Shown here in pieces: positions 12,110 to 32,340 of a DNA stretch of 33,189 nt (the stretch's first letter is position 1; every line of letters begins with the position of its first letter). Under the pieces are notes generated by a model that worked only from the letters and a program-made list of their open reading frames with translations, was not told where the DNA came from and made no database searches. The DNA is taken from contig JANNBX010000006.1 of assembly GCA_031385945.1 (NCBI GenBank), positions 1-33,189 of the forward strand, given 5' to 3'. The translations under genes and the position numbers were made by a program. This DNA comes from Methylophilaceae bacterium. GTDB taxonomy: Bacteria; Pseudomonadota; Gammaproteobacteria; Burkholderiales; Methylophilaceae.

Positions 12110-12901
12110 TTACGCGATTATTTCTTGCTCTTGTAGCTGTCGTAAAATACCTTCGCCAAAAGTGATTAAGGCTTGTGTATCTGCCTGACTTTCCATAACT
12201 GCTTGGCTAGCTGGGTCTTGTTTGTTGGCAGTTGTAGCTAAATTAACGCTGAGTTGTGTGAGCGCCTCAACACCTGTGTGTGGTTTATCTTTTAAAATAT
12301 GGAGTAGCTGAGCGGTGAGTTCATTTAGCTCAACAAATTGCACTTTAAATGCAGCGTTACGATATACCACCAAAAATATTGGCTGACTTAATGGTGCTGT
12401 GGGCTTATTTTTTGCAGATATTTGATGTACCGCAAAGTGGTATTTCACAAGCGCTATACTTGGGTTAACAACAATTTTTTGTGTCATTAAATCATGATTT
12501 TTAGGACTATTTTCACCACCAAAAGGAGCTGTTTGCATGCTGCTGACAGCCAGCTCTAGCCACTCGTAGTGCGCTAAACTGGTTAGGTAAACGGGTAAAT
12601 TTGGCTGTGTCGTTAAATAATTAAAAAAGGTTTTTGGAATATCTCTAAATAGTGGGCTTTGGCTAGGATAATGTGCAAAAAAATCGCGTACAAGCTTGCG
12701 CCAAGCGCGCTTGCCAAGTACCAATTGTAAAACTGGATAACAGGCTGAGACGCTAGAAAATATATTATTGAAAACAATTTCTGTATAAACCGCCATACGT
12801 TTTTTATCAACTTTAGCAGGTGCTTTATGATGTTTTGGATCACGTATATGCGCACAAAAAGCTTGTTGATATGCCTGAAAACTAGGGTGCTCTAATGCCA
12901 T
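12110..12901 (-). CDS. DUF2063 family protein (HvfC/BufC-like MNIO partner, putative precursor-binding/DNA-binding domain).
   Basis: The N-terminal 'FQAYQQAFCAHIRDP...RMAVYTEIVFNNI...YPSQSPLFRD' matches the DUF2063 signature. The start ATG lies 2 nt after the DUF692 stop. Confidence 0.75.
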   Translation of the reverse strand: MALEHPSFQAYQQAFCAHIRDPKHHKAPAKVDKKRMAVYTEIVFNNIFSSVSACYPVLQLVLGKRAWRKLVRDFFAHYPSQSPLFRDIPKTFFNYLTTQPNLPVYLTSLAHYEWLELAVSSMQTAPFGGENSPKNHDLMTQKIVVNPSIALVKYHFAVHQISAKNKPTAPLSQPIFLVVYRNAAFKVQFVELNELTAQLLHILKDKPHTGVEALTQLSVNLATTANKQDPASQAVMESQADTQALITFGEGILRQLQEQEIIA

Positions 12902-12903
12902 GA

Positions 12904-13815
12904 TTAAGCGCTTGCGAGTAATGGTTGAATGGCTTGATATTGACGTTGTAACACTGCTATTTGATTGATTTCATGCATTAAAATTGGTAAAGCAGGAATA
13001 TTAGTATCACGCTCTAATAAAGTAGGGAAAACACCATAAAGTTGATAGGCTTCTTCTAGCAATGCCCAAACCTCGGGCACAACATCCTGTGCGTGCGTAT
13101 CAATAATTAAGTTATCTGCCTCACGATCATGCCCAGCAATATGTGCATAAACAATACGCTCACCAGGAACACCGCGCAAAAATACGTGTGGGTCAAAACC
13201 AAAATTCACACTATTCACATAAATATTATTGATATCTAAATGCAAGTCACAATCTGCCTCACTCAATACCGCATTTAAAAAAGTTAGCTCATCCATGCTA
13301 GAAATAGGCGCTTCCGCATAGTAAGAAGTATTTTCAATAGCAATTCGTCGCTCTAGCGTGTCTTGTACTTGCTTAATGCGGTTAGCCACATAAAACACGG
13401 CTTCTTCTGTAAACGGTATGGGCAGTAAATCATGCATATAGCTCGGTTTACCTAAGTTTAAGTCACTGCAGTAACTCAGATGCTCAGTGTAGAGCACGAT
13501 TTTATGCTGGTTTAAAAAGCTTTTTACTTGCTGTAAAAAAAACGTATTCAGTGGGTCTGGCCCACCGAGAGATAATGATAAGCCGTGACAGGTAAGTGGG
13601 AAGCGTTCGGCAAGCCAAGCAATTTGAACTGCTTGTTTACCGCCCGCTTCTATCCAGTTTTCTGGTGCAATTTCTAAAAAACTAACATGCTCAATTAAAT
13701 CACTTTCAAATGCAGCTTGCAGCGGAGCAATTAACTCGCGCTTTAAGCCAAAGCCTGCACCTTTTAGCAGAGCCACATTTTTTGAGGCCGAATGAGTTTG
13801 ATTAGTTAGCACCAT
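12904..13815 (-). CDS. DUF692 multinuclear non-heme iron oxidative enzyme (MNIO; MbnB/HvfB/BufB-like).
   Basis: The N-terminal 'GAGFGLKRELI' and a TIM-barrel xylose-isomerase-like 'HLDINNIYVNSVNFGFDP' region are typical of DUF692. It sits between a Cys-motif precursor and DUF2063. Confidence 0.85.
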   Translation of the reverse strand: MVLTNQTHSASKNVALLKGAGFGLKRELIAPLQAAFESDLIEHVSFLEIAPENWIEAGGKQAVQIAWLAERFPLTCHGLSLSLGGPDPLNTFFLQQVKSFLNQHKIVLYTEHLSYCSDLNLGKPSYMHDLLPIPFTEEAVFYVANRIKQVQDTLERRIAIENTSYYAEAPISSMDELTFLNAVLSEADCDLHLDINNIYVNSVNFGFDPHVFLRGVPGERIVYAHIAGHDREADNLIIDTHAQDVVPEVWALLEEAYQLYGVFPTLLERDTNIPALPILMHEINQIAVLQRQYQAIQPLLASA

Positions 13816-13846
13816 TTATTGGCTATTCAATTATCTAGCAATTCAG

Positions 13847-14173
13847 TTATTTTTTGTCTGAATGGCAAGAGCCTTCTTTCATTTTGTCGGCTTTCATTTC
13901 ACCATGGCATGAGCCTTCTTTCATTTTGTCGCCCATTTTTTCACTTCCGCATGATGCTTCGGCGCCTTTTTCCATTTTTTCAGATTTAGCTGCGCCACAT
14001 TTACCAGTGCCACATTTGCCGTCTTTCATATCTTTGGCGTCTGCTACCATATAGCCTGATGTAAGTGCTTTTAATGCAAATGGATTAGTTGCTGCTGAAA
14101 CTTGCGTAGTGGCAATAGATGCAACAAAAGCGCCGCCAATAGCCAATGCAATAGCTGTTTTAGATGTGTTCAT
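13847..14173 (-). CDS. Exported Cys-motif precursor peptide (HvfA/bufferin-like MNIO substrate) with Met/Lys/His-rich tandem repeats.
   Basis: I refined the start to the ATG at 14173, with an AAGGAG RBS 7 nt upstream. The Sec signal peptide is 'MNTSKTAIALAIGGAFVASIATTQVSA'. The mature region 'DGKCGTGKCG...EASCGSEKMGDKMKEGSCHGEMKADKMKEGSCHSDKK' has 5 Cys in G/S-C-G/H motifs. It lies immediately upstream of DUF692. Confidence 0.7.
   Translation of the reverse strand: MNTSKTAIALAIGGAFVASIATTQVSAATNPFALKALTSGYMVADAKDMKDGKCGTGKCGAAKSEKMEKGAEASCGSEKMGDKMKEGSCHGEMKADKMKEGSCHSDKK
13865..13950. repeat. 42-nt tandem direct repeat inside the precursor gene, encoding 'KMKEGSCH' units.
   Basis: 'gagccttctttcattttgtcg' recurs at about 13870 and 13911. 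The protein shows KMKEGSCH-GEMKAD-KMKEGSCH. Confidence 0.75.
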
Positions 14174-14292
14174 GTGAAACTCCTTAAGATATATTAGATT
14201 TGATAACTCAAAAATCAGTTGCCTGTTAACGTCATTACTTGCAGTTATACGCATTCAATATTGAGTTAGATTCAACTAGCTTCGTTTTGAGA

Positions 14293-14547
14293 CTAAACCG
14301 TATTTGACTGATTGATTGCTTGAGTTACTTTATCGTGTACCGATTGCGGTAGGCGTATTTGATTATCTGATTCAATCGCTGTAGTCGTTTTACGTACACT
14401 TTTTTGTATCAACTTAAGTTGATTAGCAAAACGTGCACAAAATTTACAAATCATCAAATGTAGTTTAAGTGAGCATTTTTCACTAAACGTTAATCGACGA
14501 TCTAAATTGTGAGATAGCAACTGGCTGGCTTGTTTGCAACTTAACAT
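14293..14547 (-). CDS. Small soluble zf-HC2 (ChrR-like zinc-binding) anti-sigma factor.
   Basis: The 'H-LMI-C-KF-C' H-x3-C-x2-C motif plus further Cys residues, and no TM helix. The ATG at 14547 lies 1 nt after the sigma stop TAG. The tracked ORF begins at a TTG at 14559. Confidence 0.6.
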   Translation of the reverse strand: MLSCKQASQLLSHNLDRRLTFSEKCSLKLHLMICKFCARFANQLKLIQKSVRKTTTAIESDNQIRLPQSVHDKVTQAINQSNTV

Positions 14548-14548
14548 A

Positions 14549-15130
14549 CTATTTTTCAACCTCCAGCCAATGAATTTCTAAACATTTACGTAACCCCATT
14601 CGAGCGCGATATAGCATCACCCAAGCATTGGTCGTGGTGATGTCTAGTTCCTTACAAATAGTTTCGTTATCTTCTTCAATCACTTCACGCAGCATAAATA
14701 AAGCGGCTAATTTTTTAGGTAGTTTATCCATACAACTCTGTAATACACCTAAAAATTGCTTTTGTTCCAGCTCACCTTCTGGCGCATTCCAGCCCATCGG
14801 TGCGTCTATCCAATGGCCTTCATCATCAAAAAAGTCGTCTGCACCAGCTGTATCTGGAATATTTTCTTCATATACTAAAGCAGTGGTTTTCACTTGCACA
14901 CGCATCACATCAATAATTTTATGTTTCAAAATACCAGTCAGCCAGGTGCGTGGGCTAGACTGCTCAGCAAAGCTGGGACTTTTAATAGCGGCTAAGAACG
15001 TTTCTTGCACCACGTCTTCTGCTTGATGTGGGTCGCGTAAACGCGCTAGGGCAAAGCGATATAGATAGTCCCCGTGCTCGTTGAGCCAGTCATGGGCGCT
15101 AGCATTTGCAGCTTTATTAGTAGTGTTCAT
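14549..15130 (-). CDS. ECF-subfamily RNA polymerase sigma-70 factor.
   Basis: 193 aa. Region 2 'DVVQETFLAAIK' and the region 4 helix-turn-helix 'NAWVMLYRARMGLRKCL' are characteristic of ECF sigma factors. Confidence 0.8.
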   Translation of the reverse strand: MNTTNKAANASAHDWLNEHGDYLYRFALARLRDPHQAEDVVQETFLAAIKSPSFAEQSSPRTWLTGILKHKIIDVMRVQVKTTALVYEENIPDTAGADDFFDDEGHWIDAPMGWNAPEGELEQKQFLGVLQSCMDKLPKKLAALFMLREVIEEDNETICKELDITTTNAWVMLYRARMGLRKCLEIHWLEVEK

Positions 15131-26400: not shown

Positions 26401-26430
26401 AAAAAAGCCGACATATAGTCGGCTTTTCTT
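26401..26430. terminator. Bidirectional rho-independent terminator between convergent genes.
   Basis: 'aaaaaa gccgac atata gtcggc ttttctt' is a stem with A-run and T-run flanks. Confidence 0.6.
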
Positions 26431-26454: not shown

Positions 26455-26694
26455 TTATTTTGCAGCTTCAGCAGGAGCAGCTTCAGCAGCTGGTGCTTCA
26501 GCAGCAGGAGCAGCTTCAGCTGGCATTGCTTCAGCAGCAGGAGCAGATTCAGCAGCTGGTGCAGCTTCAGCAGCTGGAGCTTCAGCTGGCATTGCTTCAG
26601 CAGCAGGAGCTGCTTCAGGAGCAACAGCTTCTTCTTTTTTACATGCAGTTAGAGCTAAAGCCAATAAAGCAGCTAATAATAGTGAACGTGTCAT
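26455..26694 (-). CDS. Small lipoprotein built from Pro/Ala/Glu repeats ('PAAEA' units).
   Basis: I refined the start to the ATG at 26694, with an AAAGGAA RBS. 'MTRSLLLAALLALALTAC' is a lipobox. The rest is about 10 PAAEA(M)-type repeats, encoded by gcagc/ttcagc DNA tandem repeats. Confidence 0.55.
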   Translation of the reverse strand: MTRSLLLAALLALALTACKKEEAVAPEAAPAAEAMPAEAPAAEAAPAAESAPAAEAMPAEAAPAAEAPAAEAAPAEAAK

Positions 26695-26864
26695 TTTAAT
26701 TCCTTTTAACATTAGTGAGATAACAAAACTTTTTTTCGAAAAAAAACTTATCAAATAGGTTTAGCTATGTGAATGGTCAGGATTTTACCAGCAAATTAAA
26801 AAAAAACCAGTGTTTTTGTGGCTAAGCGGTCATTTGTAAATCAATATTGAACTTAAATACAACA

Positions 26865-27779
26865 TCAATCTACTTTTATCATCACTTTTGTATTTTGATA
26901 GCTGCTATTTTGTGATTGACGCAATATTTCACCACTGACTTCATCGCGATTTTGCATGAGCTGGCCTAAATCAAGCCAATCGCCTCTATTCACGCGTACT
27001 GTAGTGTTTAGTTCTTGAAAATCAATATGGTCCACTTGATTTTGTTTTGTGTTTATTTGGGCGATTCTTGGTGTAACTTCTAATTCAATTTGATTACTTG
27101 TTGTATTTTCACCAACTATGCGCGGTCTTACTGCAAAGCCCGTGGTAATTTCGCGAAAATCAGTCACATTTTGGCTAACCATATAGCGCTGAGTAATAGT
27201 GATCCAGCGCTGTGTAAACGGCATTATCTGCCCAACTCTGATAAACGATTGCGCACCATCTTGCACGTTCACAAACTGCTGACTGCGTGTTGTTTGTTGG
27301 GTATTGCGCGCATTGGCATCAACCCCCAAGCCATGCTGTTTGTCAACACGTATACCAGTTGACTGGCGCGTGAGGGTTTGTCCATTAGATTGTGTCACCG
27401 TATTATTTTGGCGTGGTACATTAATCTCCACATCGCCCACACGTTGGCGACCCGAAATACCAACATTACGTTGATTACTCTCACTCATATCGCTATTGCT
27501 AATCGTAATTCTCAAGTTTTGACGCGCAACATCAAGCGTTGCTAGCATGCGCTCTATGTTGGTTAATGTGTCGGGGCTCGCGCGGACAAATAAATTGTAA
27601 TCTGAGCCTGTGACCATTTCATCAGCATGTATCAGCGGCATTAACGTAGGAATCACATCATTTGCGCTACGATATTTTAACGAGATAATTTTAAATTCAG
27701 TTTCAGCGCTCACTGAGCCAACAAAAAGGCTATGAAATAAAAGCCAGCTGATTAACAAAATGTATTTGATTATGTTCAC
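26865..27779 (-). CDS. Exported secretin-like protein: secretin_N-like domain plus a partial secretin C-terminal-like region.
   Basis: Signal peptide, then 'FKIISLKYRSANDVIPTLMPLI...LFVRASPDTLTNIERMLATLD' (secretin N-domain pattern). The C-terminal 'IELEVTPRIAQ...TTVRVNRGDWLDLGQL' resembles the secretin core. At 304 aa it is far shorter than canonical secretins. Confidence 0.45.
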   Translation of the reverse strand: MNIIKYILLISWLLFHSLFVGSVSAETEFKIISLKYRSANDVIPTLMPLIHADEMVTGSDYNLFVRASPDTLTNIERMLATLDVARQNLRITISNSDMSESNQRNVGISGRQRVGDVEINVPRQNNTVTQSNGQTLTRQSTGIRVDKQHGLGVDANARNTQQTTRSQQFVNVQDGAQSFIRVGQIMPFTQRWITITQRYMVSQNVTDFREITTGFAVRPRIVGENTTSNQIELEVTPRIAQINTKQNQVDHIDFQELNTTVRVNRGDWLDLGQLMQNRDEVSGEILRQSQNSSYQNTKVMIKVD

Positions 27780-27801
27780 GGGATAACTCTCAAAATAACC
27801 A

Positions 27802-28335
27802 TTAAAGCCCTACATGTGTACTCAAGCTTGAGATGGTTGCGCCATCTACTAACTCTTCATAACGCTCTAACAAAGCATTGGTTTCAGCCACGTCATCAAA
27901 CACATATTTAAAGCGTGCTTGGTCAATATGAAAACGCCGCAAATAATGACTTTTATCTGCCAAAATAAAAGCGTCTAGCGCATTTTTTGCGGTATCTGCT
28001 GTTTCATAAATCGTGATGGAATGACTATAAATTTTCAGCAGATTCAATAGCCTGGCGCAGCGCTCGGCAATAAATGATTTGTCGTGCACCACAATGGTGA
28101 GCTTGTTGGCGCGGCTTTTAGCTAAAAAGCTGCGCAAGGCATCAGTGACCGCCGTACTTTGATAATCCCCCCGCGATAAATTGGGGTCAAATATCAAGAG
28201 CTCTTTTTCTGCACGCTGAATTAATAACAATGTCGCCGCTTCAAAGCTGCGCTCGCCCTGTAAAATCACATTAGGTTGCAAGGTATCGAGCAAGCCGTGG
28301 CTGGCGTTGTGTGTTTTATTGAAGTCTTCACTCAA
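27802..28335 (-). CDS. Hypothetical protein.
   Basis: 177-aa ORF between roxA and the secretin-like gene, with short intergenic gaps that suggest co-transcription. No recognisable family. Confidence 0.4.
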   Translation of the reverse strand: MSEDFNKTHNASHGLLDTLQPNVILQGERSFEAATLLLIQRAEKELLIFDPNLSRGDYQSTAVTDALRSFLAKSRANKLTIVVHDKSFIAERCARLLNLLKIYSHSITIYETADTAKNALDAFILADKSHYLRRFHIDQARFKYVFDDVAETNALLERYEELVDGATISSLSTHVGL

Positions 28336-28346
28336 TTTACATTCCC

Positions 28347-29474
28347 CTAATCGTTAAATTGTAAATAACCAGCTAAATACCATTCGTGCAACGCTTGTAA
28401 ATCGTCAAACTTAGCCACCATTTCAGGCGCTAGGTGCCTGCTATTAGCTAGCTCTATCAATGCCTGTTGGTTTTTTGACATCAATAATATTTCGCCATTC
28501 AAATAAAAATACGCGCCTTGAAATAAAGCCATACTTTTTAAATCTAACATTAAGCCTACTTTGGCTGCCTGCTCAGCAAATTTTTTAAGCGACAGCTTTT
28601 TATTCGCTTCAAAATAGAGTTGCGGCTTAGGCTCGGTTAAATAACGGCCTAAAAAGTCGGCAACGTTTTCTGAGTGCCAAACCAATTTATTTAGAGTGTT
28701 ACTCACTTTATCTACCATCAACGTGCTGATTTCAGCAGGCGCTACCTGCAAGGTTAAATCTGCATCTTGATACAAGCCATCAAGCTCACATTTATCTTGC
28801 ATATAATTCAAAAACTCAATGGCTAACTCTTGATTTGACGGCGCTCTAAAGCCAATTGAGTACGTCATACACTCGCCCACTGCCACACCCCAATGCGCGT
28901 ATTGTGGCGGCAAATAGAGCATATCACCCGCTTCAAGTACGTATTCTTCTTCCATTTTAAAGTGTTTAAGTAGCTTTAATGGCGCACCCTCAACCAAACT
29001 TAAATCTTGTTGATTACTCCATTGCCAGTGCCGCTTGCCCTGCCCTTGTAACAAAAATACATCGTAAGAATCGACATGCGCACCTACGCCACCGCCATCT
29101 GGCGCATAGCTCACCATCAGGTCGTCTAGCCTTGCAGTGGGGATAAAATTAAACTGGCGCAATAAATCATAAGCCTCTGGAACATGGTGATTGACCGTTT
29201 GCACCAATAATGTCCAGTTTTTATCGGGTAATCGCGCAAAATCGTCATCGTCAAACGGGCCGTCTTCAACTTGCCACTCAGAATTTTCATGGCGAATCAA
29301 ACGCGATTGCACTTCACTCTCACAACTCAAGCCTGCAAGCTCATCAGCACTGAGTAAGCCGGCAAAATTTGGAATGGCTTGTTTGATCAGTAAGGGTTTT
29401 TTTTGCCAATATTGGCTTAAAAATTGCTCAGCTGAAATACCGCCTAATATTGTTAACTTTTGATTATTTTTCAT
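28347..29474 (-). CDS. roxA: Cupin-4/JmjC ribosomal protein L16 Arg81 hydroxylase (YcfD/RoxA-like).
   Basis: The N-terminal 'FLSQYWQKKPLLIKQAIPNF...ELAGLSCESEVQSRLI' aligns with E. coli YcfD. 'HVDSYDVFLLQGQGKRHW' is a His/Asp Fe(II)-site region. Confidence 0.7.
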   Translation of the reverse strand: MKNNQKLTILGGISAEQFLSQYWQKKPLLIKQAIPNFAGLLSADELAGLSCESEVQSRLIRHENSEWQVEDGPFDDDDFARLPDKNWTLLVQTVNHHVPEAYDLLRQFNFIPTARLDDLMVSYAPDGGGVGAHVDSYDVFLLQGQGKRHWQWSNQQDLSLVEGAPLKLLKHFKMEEEYVLEAGDMLYLPPQYAHWGVAVGECMTYSIGFRAPSNQELAIEFLNYMQDKCELDGLYQDADLTLQVAPAEISTLMVDKVSNTLNKLVWHSENVADFLGRYLTEPKPQLYFEANKKLSLKKFAEQAAKVGLMLDLKSMALFQGAYFYLNGEILLMSKNQQALIELANSRHLAPEMVAKFDDLQALHEWYLAGYLQFND

Positions 29475-29548
29475 GTCAATATAATAGCTTAATACGCTAT
29501 TAAGCCAATAATACGCTAGAATGAAATCAAACTTTTACGAGCAAATTT

Positions 29549-31593: not shown

Positions 31594-32340
31594 ATGATCA
31601 TTAAAAAGCGCTTATTCATGTGTTTGATGAGCACTTTTTTATTGGTAGTTACTGTTTTGCTAGCAGGTTGTGCCAGCACTAGTGACGCACCCATTAATGG
31701 TAAAACTGTTCCAATTCAGCAAGACCAGAGCTCATTTGAGCAGCTCGCCAAAAACGATATAGACCGCATGGCAGATATAGAAATGCGCGAACACGAACTC
31801 AGCTTAAAAATACTCATGTTAAAGTTATACAAACGTAACCCTGACGAACATCATAAAAATGGTGTTAAAAATGCTGAAGATATGGTGAATTTGATTTTTA
31901 CGCCAGAGCAAACTTGGGATTTTGCAGCGCTTAATCACGCTAAAGATATTGCCGCCATACATATTGCATTTGCGCCAGAATACACAGGAGACCGTGTGCT
32001 GGCATTGATTACGGGCCTATACACCATGCTAGTTAAGGCGCATGGTGGTCACACCCAATTTTACGCAACCACTAATTTAGACGCACAAAATATTTACAAC
32101 GCCGCTAGAAATATTGAAATTGCCGTATGGAAATTATCAAATAATCGTGATGTTAACGGCAAACTTTATTTAATCACCAATGAGATTAATGCTACAGAAC
32201 CTAACTTAAGTTTTGAGCGCGAATTTGGAAAAATGATTGGCAGAACCGATTTATTCGCCATTAGCCTTGCAGAAAAGTCGCAAAGATTGGTCACTAGAGT
32301 GATTCAAAACTTTGCGACTATGTTATTTCTACCTTTTTAG
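31594..32340 (+). CDS. Hypothetical lipoprotein.
   Basis: 'LLAGCAS' lipobox after an n-region 'KKR'. 248 aa. Confidence 0.5.
   Translation: MIIKKRLFMCLMSTFLLVVTVLLAGCASTSDAPINGKTVPIQQDQSSFEQLAKNDIDRMADIEMREHELSLKILMLKLYKRNPDEHHKNGVKNAEDMVNLIFTPEQTWDFAALNHAKDIAAIHIAFAPEYTGDRVLALITGLYTMLVKAHGGHTQFYATTNLDAQNIYNAARNIEIAVWKLSNNRDVNGKLYLITNEINATEPNLSFEREFGKMIGRTDLFAISLAEKSQRLVTRVIQNFATMLFLPF

Follow-up and report, generated by a model that had tools for sequence, protein, structure and literature searches.

A 304-aa exported protein encoded in a Methylophilaceae contig belongs to the secretin superfamily as a genuine, if minimal, member. It would represent the smallest natural kind of secretin and comes from a large uncharacterised family, which we refer to as mini-secretins; as judged by alignment, the secretin core and both gates are kept. 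We put at roughly 0.55 the probability that the mini-secretin forms a minimal self-assembling gated ring that does not dock to a platform and that works in a conserved module other than a secretion system. An earlier note on this DNA, written from the sequence alone, had the homology right; its observation is partly confirmed and its interpretation partly supported by the analysis below, which covers the whole 33,189-nt stretch (the window). The genes and features discussed are as follows.

26401-26429 (-): terminator-like hairpin, 12-bp stem and T-run, past the lipoprotein gene (consensus scan, pattern match only)
26455-26694 (-): small lipoprotein gene, 79 aa from the ATG at 26694; MTRSLLLAALLALALTAC and an Ala/Pro/Glu-rich tail
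26865-27779 (-): mini-secretin gene, 304 aa, GTG start; signal peptide, N3-type domain and double-barrel/gate core
26868-26954 (-): C-terminal segment, residues 276-304; polar helix DEVSRxIL (DEVSxxIL) and last barrel strand KVMIKVD
26955-27278 (-): inner barrel and gates, residues 168-275 (pIV landmark alignment)
27279-27518 (-): first outer-barrel strand (residues 88-97) and lip-position segment (98-167), aligned to pIV
27519-27698 (-): N3-type (Secretin_N, ring-building) domain, residues 28-87
27705-27779 (-): signal peptide, residues 1-25, MNIIKYILLISWLLFHSLFVGSVSA/ETEF, without lipobox (read from sequence)
27802-28335 (-): DUF7931 gene, 177 aa, TTG start; PF25559 at 66.3 bits; conserved upstream partner
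28347-29474 (-): roxA, 375 aa; ribosomal oxygenase with JmjC and winged helix; first gene of the putative operon
29481-29508 (-): sigma-70-like promoter match upstream of roxA (consensus scan, 9/12 matches)

Domain content, gates and family

The two reading frames described in the earlier note, of 304 and 177 aa, are present at 26865-27779 and 27802-28335 on the minus strand, and the domains it assigned to the longer product were largely borne out. The predicted signal peptide has K5, a hydrophobic stretch at residues 6-21 and a VSA/ETEF junction without a lipobox; the A/xTEFK junction is kept across our family alignment A1, and none of 149 family representatives carries a lipobox. The proposed Secretin_N-like domain matches the Pfam model over residues 30-87 at 27.4 bits, slightly below the GA of 28.2, and the proposed C-terminal secretin core matches Pfam Secretin (PF00263) over residues 157-280 at 36.4 bits against a GA of 27.5. 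PF00263 is also precomputed on nearly all homologues of the protein.

Searching the PDB with the single sequence reached only E = 0.11, and a family profile was therefore needed. The profile built from A1 matched XcpQ of P. aeruginosa best (5.5e-13; residues 57-253 to XcpQ 297-531), along with GspD, ExeD, pIV and PilQ; at the family level the best matches are pIV, GspD and HofQ. An AlphaFold2 monomer model had a mean pLDDT of 69.6, with the N-terminal domain and the C-terminal half at 80-89 and the strands at 210-221, 230-242 and 259-264 at 87-89. Foldseek searches with this model returned 34 significant PDB matches, all of them secretins (InvG at 2.6e-8, GspD, PilQ, pIV); the fold is that of a secretin subunit, N3 plus a double beta-sheet with gate hairpins. 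The structural similarity on which the earlier note had staked its case is thus present. In the lip region (residues 98-164) the model has a pLDDT <50. The NCBIfam equivalog model for GspD (TIGR02517) gave 39.3 bits against a cut-off of 351.35, and no NCBIfam model claims members of the family.

We then compared the protein with pIV of phage f1/M13. In the cryo-EM structure of f1 pIV, N3 spans residues 108-172, Glu185 precedes a beta-lip at 199-234, the Gate-1 hinges are Gly267 and Gly297, and Gate 2 runs from Asp321 to Asn335, with Arg337 following (PMC8563730). Our pIV query sequence agrees with all 16 residues named in PMC8563730. The family HMM aligns to pIV 113-358, and the PHROGs profile phrog_1012 (M13 protein IV) aligns collinearly with residues 25-281 over positions 105-361 of 403 (E = 1.6e-12), placing 257 residues on 257 positions. 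In the HMM alignment D83 corresponds to pIV D171 and strand N88-D97 to 176-185. G183 in the VGQxxPF motif falls on the Gate-1 hinge G267, and G214 in TTGF falls within 1-2 residues of the hinge G297; the window segment TTVRVNRGDWLDLGQL aligns with pIV ATTVNLRDGQTLLLGGL. From the strand-1 acid to the Gate-1 hinge the window protein spans 86 aa versus 82 in pIV, and the Gate-1 loop is 31 aa versus 30. Gate 2 lies at about 240-255 and is followed by a GDWLDLG strand. G183 is retained in 301 of 308 family members and G214 in every one, with Gate-1 loops of 27-35 aa and Gate-2 segments of 12-21 aa. The earlier note held that most of the gated-pore domain is lacking; because the hinges, the spacing and the Gate-1 loops match pIV, this was wrong. 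The parts that are absent are N0-N2, the amphipathic helical loop (AHL) and the S-domain; the reading of the pore as truncated is wrong.

The missing parts lie at both ends. N3 starts 3 residues past the signal peptide, and N0-N2 are therefore absent; the N0 model (type_II_gspD_N0) found no match in the mini-secretin, whereas pIV gave 9.3e-12 in the same scan. At the other end, alignment to the Pfam Secretin profile breaks off at its position 128 of 169, and positions 129-169 correspond to pIV ~363-403, that is, to the AHL and the last strand. An AHL-type motif occurs in 0 of 308 family members, and the conserved polar helix DEVSRxIL stands where the AHL would be. The C-terminal segment has a fixed length of 27-29 aa across the family, compared with ~45 in pIV, and the protein terminates 1 residue past its last strand, leaving no S-domain.

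The segment between the first outer-barrel strand and the inner barrel matches the pIV beta-lip (199-234) and its return in position. Val/Ile residues alternate strictly with polar or charged ones at residues 106-121 and 150-156, a conserved pattern, and the two lip strands are joined by a variable loop that holds a lineage-specific insertion of ~24 aa in the window protein; across the family the segment measures 40-88 aa. It is 1.7% aromatic and 25% charged, compared with 6% and 13% in the same segment of pIV. From this composition, with pIV as the one comparator, we infer a hairpin with a hydrophilic exposed face. Together, a hydrophilic lip face and the absence of an AHL argue against canonical membrane insertion, so that canonical insertion into the outer membrane is probably absent from the mini-secretin, as far as composition set against a single canonical secretin (pIV) can indicate.

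The family is large and widely distributed. A word-indexed search found 465 homologues, and an exhaustive search of 1.84 billion cluster representatives returned 1533 matches at E<=1e-3 and 736 at E<=1e-10, with a median length of 285 aa among the best 150 matches and a family size range of 260-300 aa. In alignment A1, at identities of 40-88%, 30 columns do not vary. Members with a named source belong to Methylophilaceae, Acidiferrobacterales, other Gamma- and Betaproteobacteria, Gallionella and Desulfuromonadales, and carry database labels such as "hypothetical", "secretin N-terminal domain-containing", "NolW" or a generic "GspD/PulD". Literature searches returned no publication on this family, on orphan, short, mini or stand-alone secretins, or on a secretin together with MepS. 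One probable candidate member is P. aeruginosa PA2633, which, if it belongs to the family, would make the mini-secretin genetically tractable. On the PAO1 map we take it to lie a few genes from purB (PA2629) and mnmA (PA2626), which would fit the gene arrangement called type B below. A surface-shaving proteome in which PA2633 was detected lists it as a "Secretin_N domain-containing protein" (PMC8959810), and our searches found no characterisation of it beyond that listing.

Gene neighbourhood and conserved partners

The window contains housekeeping genes only, as judged by Pfam scans of ~40 ORFs: rnfABCDGE, nth, dapA, bamC, recJ, pgm and gpmI, as well as genes for an M23 peptidase, an ECF sigma factor and an MbnB/DUF2063 pair. 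The same scans found no T2SS, T4P, T3SS or Tad genes, in line with the earlier note's remark that no T2SS, T4P or T3SS genes are nearby, and scans of the window ORFs found no phage genes near the mini-secretin. PADLOC reported no defence-system match; a DrmC hit to the DUF7931 protein (E = 0.0039) reflects the PLD fold only. The neighbouring roxA named in that note is real, with Pfam JmjC_2 at 1.6e-35 and ROXA-like_wH at 2.9e-11. Its proposal that roxA, the 177-aa gene and the secretin gene are co-transcribed is plausible from the sequence, because the three share a strand with gaps of 11 nt (roxA/DUF7931) and 22 nt (DUF7931/secretin) and their order is kept in 75-77 of 80 reference loci; each start is also preceded by a purine-rich stretch. 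The small lipoprotein gene, whose product has no Pfam match, is probably the last in the transcription unit, and a consensus scan found no terminator-like site between it and the secretin gene. Promoter and terminator matches in this region are no more numerous than in shuffled sequence and serve as positional hints only.

The 80 reference loci, drawn from GTDB, are all from Methylophilaceae. The order roxA-DUF7931-secretin is near-universal among them, with DUF7931 in 77 and roxA in 75, and a convergent MBL-bamC-dapA group lies downstream of the secretin. From the DUF7931 stop to the earliest possible secretin start the median distance is 3 nt, with a 4-nt overlap in 15 loci, an estimate biased toward short gaps by construction. 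In 64 of 68 loci the next gene downstream, on the same strand, encodes a homologous small lipoprotein with signal peptide MTRSALLAALLALALTAC and an Ala/Pro/Glu-rich tail. Because these loci represent one bacterial family, we examined wider lineages, using annotated contigs and a metagenome scan (80 loci) with a profile of distant members. That profile was the 10-sequence alignment A4; a 44-sequence alignment, A3, was dropped as too divergent. Neither the 12 annotated contexts across phyla nor the 80 reference loci contained secretion or pilus genes. The arrangements found were the following.

Type A, Methylophilaceae and relatives: same arrangement as in the window
Type A', L091: pyrD on the opposite strand, then roxA-DUF7931-secretin
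Type B, an Acidiferrobacterales-like gammaproteobacterial clade: mnmA-purB-x-DUF7931-NlpC/P60-secretin, without roxA
Type B'/D, L159, L173, L143, L153 and L160: purB…DUF7931-secretin, or DUF7931 adjoining the secretin, without P60
Type C, a high-GC betaproteobacteria-like clade: P60 divergent from the secretin, flanked by SBP and a DinG-like helicase
Type E, Desulfuromonadales, Gallionella, a Betaproteobacteria MAG and others: solo secretin genes

Among the divergent loci with at least 700 bp of upstream sequence (n=55), DUF7931 and P60 occur together in 16, P60 alone in 16 and DUF7931 alone in 4, while the other 19 lack both. Of the 44 divergent loci that extend 1.2 kb or more upstream, 2 carry roxA, which is a lineage-specific neighbour. 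DUF7931 can be lost as well: it is absent from Methylobacillus loci L060 and L066 and from many solo members. We considered whether a cryptic DUF7931 lies upstream of solo secretins and rejected this, finding no HMM match in L081 or L083; the 171-aa ORF of L172 encodes a hydrogenase maturation protease (hhalign probability 0.4% for DUF7931), and an iterated DUF7931 HMM found no additional copies. A P60 gene was likewise sought in the window and the 80 Methylophilaceae loci, and none was found.

The 36 P60 and 20 DUF7931 loci were not taken as independent observations, as flanks are common to the loci within each clade: mnmA-purB in one, SBP and the DinG-like helicase in the other. Linkage counts are therefore inflated by shared ancestry, and the shared flanks reduce them to ~3-4 independent contexts for DUF7931-secretin and 2 for P60-secretin. 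The DUF7931-secretin pair nonetheless stays adjacent while its surroundings change, and is found in Gammaproteobacteria without roxA; such adjacency through changing flanks is the usual signature of functional coupling. The earlier note's term "orphan" thus holds as to secretion systems, none of which is nearby, but the gene does have conserved partners.

The 177-aa protein matches DUF7931 (PF25559) over residues 30-162 at 66.3 bits against a threshold of 27, and has neither a signal peptide nor a hydrophobic N-terminus; we conclude that it is a cytoplasmic, single-domain protein of the PLD/Nuc fold. The AlphaFold2 model (pLDDT 88.5) matched the TrmBL2 C-domain best in Foldseek (4.5e-7), followed by Nuc (4.8e-6) and then NucT, Zucchini and PssA; Nuc, NucT, Zucchini, PssA and PLD were all returned at probability 1.0, which identifies the PLD fold. 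The HxK(x)4D (HKD) motif occurs in 0 of 143 DUF7931 sequences, and the family should therefore not be filed as active PLDs or nucleases. We see in it a PLD-fold protein, probably ligand-binding, that either is not catalytic or has a different catalysis. Its conserved residues include C93, H130, Y131, R134, H136, R141, K143 and a C-terminal Gly-Leu. A DUF7931 profile found nothing meaningful in the PDB (YbiT, E = 0.26), and our literature searches found no paper on this domain.

The P60 neighbours are 150-175-aa lipoproteins with a lipobox and the catalytic motifs DCSG and SHVGIY. Their best NCBIfam match is MepS, a murein DD-endopeptidase/LD-carboxypeptidase, at 84-91 bits, below the equivalog cut-off of 186. 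In 36 loci the MepS-like lipoprotein gene adjoins the secretin gene (-281 to +96 bp), co-directionally in 18 and divergently in 18.

Possible roles of the mini-secretin

To our knowledge, all secretins characterised so far serve a multi-protein machine (T2SS, T3SS, T4P, Tad, competence or filamentous phage) as its portal in the outer membrane. The mini-secretin would be exported by a Sec signal peptide and would then consist of one N3 ring-building domain and a complete subunit core, predicted to have four strands each in the outer and the inner barrel as well as both gate loops. Judging from canonical secretins and from PulD deprived of N0-N2, it would most likely self-assemble into a 12-15-mer double-walled ring with a closed central gate. 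As N0-N2 are absent, such a ring should be unable to dock to the inner-membrane platform of a T2SS, T4P or T3SS, and the missing N0 suggests that it is uncoupled from any inner-membrane motor. As the AHL, the aromatic lip and the S-domain are absent too, it is probably not inserted canonically in the outer membrane. It may instead lie under or at that membrane, where a partner lipoprotein may hold it, the candidates being the MepS-like protein in the type B and C clades and the Ala/Pro/Glu-rich one in the window's clade.

In the window's lineage the module would be a putative operon, roxA-DUF7931-secretin-small lipoprotein; elsewhere it would take the form of a DUF7931-secretin pair with other flanks (Gammaproteobacteria) or of a MepS-type lipoprotein gene adjoining the secretin gene (other lineages). 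The endopeptidase linkage suggests a role tied to the peptidoglycan layer, in which the enzyme might make an opening in the wall for the ring, or might itself be positioned or controlled by it. DUF7931 is cytoplasmic, so its physical link to an exported secretin is not obvious. Together these data point to a cell-envelope or peptidoglycan-associated role rather than protein secretion by a known machine.

Several other explanations have to be weighed against a gated ring. The mini-secretin might provide the outer-membrane channel for a T2SS, T4P, competence or filamentous-phage system whose genes lie elsewhere in the genome: secretins are sometimes encoded apart from their own systems, our view of the genome is 33 kb, and the family's best matches are pIV, GspD and HofQ. 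Such a channel would, however, lack N0, the part that contacts inner-membrane partners of the GspC/PilP/PrgH type, as well as an AHL and an S-domain, and its gene would sit in a housekeeping neighbourhood conserved in 80 genomes, with secretion or pilus genes in 0 of 12 annotated contexts across phyla; we consider this quite unlikely. A serious alternative, if one with the odds against it, is a periplasmic ring or scaffold that is not a channel and by which a MepS-type endopeptidase, or some other factor of the envelope, would be positioned, caged or regulated. The MepS-like gene adjoining the secretin in 36 loci, the small Ala/Pro/Glu-rich lipoprotein next to it in the window, and a polar lip and lost AHL suggestive of a soluble outer surface all favour this idea. 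Yet the hinge glycines and gate-loop lengths are strictly conserved, as expected of a gate that opens, and the P60 linkage amounts to two clade-level arrangements, with no P60 gene in the window or the 80 Methylophilaceae loci.

Two further possibilities are effectively excluded. That the gene is a functionless, decaying remnant of a canonical secretin or a prophage pIV gene might be suggested by a product shorter than any characterised secretin and by phage pIV being the best single family match, but conservation makes this very improbable: the family is large and constant in length (736 clusters at E<=1e-10), 30 columns are invariant at 40-88% identity, every member has an intact ORF with a signal peptide, and synteny is stable in a housekeeping region with no phage genes nearby. 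The earlier note's suggestion of a pilotin-like accessory factor for another secretin fits a small, exported, secretin-related protein. Pilotins, however, are small outer-membrane lipoproteins with folds unrelated to secretin, whereas here a lipobox occurs in 0 of 149 representatives and the fold is that of the secretin subunit itself; we give this idea almost no weight.

More tentatively than for the gated ring itself, we propose that the family puts the secretin fold to a use not recognised before, independent of secretion systems. The product would be a gated ring that assembles by itself, lacks the canonical elements for membrane insertion and resides in the periplasm or on the inner side of the outer membrane, working with a MepS-type endopeptidase lipoprotein and/or a cytoplasmic non-catalytic PLD-fold protein. 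If so, the ring could make or guard a defined passage in the cell wall, or pass a non-protein substrate. This widespread 260-300-aa family would be the smallest natural secretin, with the gate kept and the docking and insertion elements lost, and it would be inherited with a cell-wall endopeptidase or a PLD-fold protein in place of any secretion system. As a minimal model, the family could help explain how the secretin core assembles and gates, and it could also reveal a new envelope function. The support is computational; the family should surprise specialists and is experimentally tractable.

Comparison with known systems

Single-domain proteins of the PLD superfamily (Nuc, NucT, Zucchini) and the TrmB/TrmBL2 C-domain share the DUF7931 fold (E from 4.5e-7 to 1e-4, TM ~0.6). 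DUF7931 differs from the single-domain proteins in lacking the HxK(x)4D catalytic motif and in its conserved residues, and from TrmB in lacking an HTH domain; the TrmBL2 C-terminal domain, its best fold match, is itself non-catalytic.

For the secretin, the "NolW" label invites comparison with RhcC1 (NolW) of the rhizobial split T3SS secretin, which is likewise short and exported and has NolW-like (Secretin_N) domains. RhcC1 comprises only the N-terminal part of T3SS secretins and acts with the Tad-type secretin RhcC2 in a T3SS cluster (PMC4311626), and we rejected the label as an equivalence for that reason; as described, RhcC1 is set apart from the mini-secretin, which itself holds the barrel and gate core and has no T3SS context. 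GspD/XcpQ (PDB 5WLN, 5WQ7) shares the VGQxVP gate motif and the N3 domain, but GspD is a 600-750-aa protein with N0-N3, a 51-80-aa lip/cap, an AHL and an S-domain, encoded in gsp operons. pIV (f1/M13; PDB 7OFH) has N0 and a linker (residues 1-107), an AHL (PFLSKIPLIGLLF) and aromatic residues flanking the lip, none of which the mini-secretin has, and its Glu185-Arg337 (E185-R337) salt bridge is not conserved; pIV is phage-encoded, whereas the mini-secretin is chromosomal, amid housekeeping genes. An engineered PulD(28-42/259-660), reduced to N3, core and S-domain, lacks N0-N2 as the mini-secretin does, and it still assembles correctly in vivo and yields dodecamers in vitro (PMC4604470). This construct, made artificially by truncating a T2SS secretin, keeps the AHL and the pilotin-binding S-domain, whereas natural mini-secretins have neither. 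Since this truncated PulD assembles, N3 and the core form a self-sufficient ring-forming unit.

Genes adjoining the mini-secretin

A gene for a small lipoprotein lies 170 nt 3' of the secretin gene on the same strand, and a homologue occupies the equivalent position in 64 of 68 Methylophilaceae loci, with duplication in some (L009, L036, L038-L040 and L043).

26455-26694 (-): small outer-membrane-type lipoprotein gene, MTRSLLLAALLALALTAC followed by ~55 aa of Ala/Pro/Glu repeats

The start of this ORF as listed (99 aa) was placed too far 5', and its product matched no Pfam family. A 79-aa ORF on the + strand (26460-26699) is a shadow of the lipoprotein gene on the (-) strand.

In 36 metagenomic loci (within L092-L171), a MepS/Spr-like NlpC/P60 lipoprotein gene immediately adjoins the mini-secretin gene, being co-directional and placed between DUF7931 and the secretin in 18 and divergent in the other 18. 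The window lineage has no such gene.

L092 5522-5995: P60 lipoprotein gene
L146 5456-5965: P60 lipoprotein gene

Variation in the protein and its putative operon

Relative to Methylotenera-type homologues, the window mini-secretin and its closest relatives (P0002-P0007) carry a Q/N/T/S/R-rich insertion of ~24 aa.

~27288-27488: segment with the insertion (protein residues 98-164); the added residues belong to the loop joining the two arms of the hairpin at the lip position

DUF7931 has been lost from two Methylobacillus loci, leaving 173 nt between roxA and the secretin in L060 (5827-6001) and 121 nt in L066 (5879-6001), and at one locus a 1.2-kb insertion separates DUF7931 from the secretin (L054 3899-5133). 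Elsewhere in the window, a 248-aa ORF (31594-32340(+)) without a Pfam match is kept in 14 Methylophilaceae loci at 53-72% identity, its distance from the roxA operon differing among them.

Neighbourhoods in other lineages

The DUF7931(-P60)-secretin cassette of Gammaproteobacteria lies immediately 3' of mnmA-purB (L090/L092, L095-L115, L159, L173). E. coli has roxA close to purB-hflD-mnmA. These placements suggest that purB…roxA-DUF7931-secretin is an ancient neighbourhood. The surroundings in Gallionella L174 (1351-4983) are a different, signalling-type neighbourhood, where a solo mini-secretin lies 3' of a gene for an AsmA-family protein and of one whose 1210-aa product matches guanylate cyclase weakly, and is followed 3' by an HDOD/HD protein gene. 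P. aeruginosa PA2633, described as 'Secretin_N domain-containing' (PMC8959810), may be a further member of the mini-secretin family.

A separate MNIO locus in the window

A second group of genes on the (-) strand lies apart from the secretin.

12110-12901 (-): DUF2063/NGO1945 partner gene beside the MNIO enzyme gene
12904-13815 (-): MNIO enzyme gene (MbnB/TglH/ChrH-family)
13847-14254 (-): 135-aa ORF upstream of the MNIO enzyme gene, without a Pfam match
14549-15130 (-): ECF-type sigma factor gene upstream of the MNIO/DUF2063 pair

The gene layout across 12110-15130(-) resembles that of a bufferin/methanobactin-like RiPP cluster.
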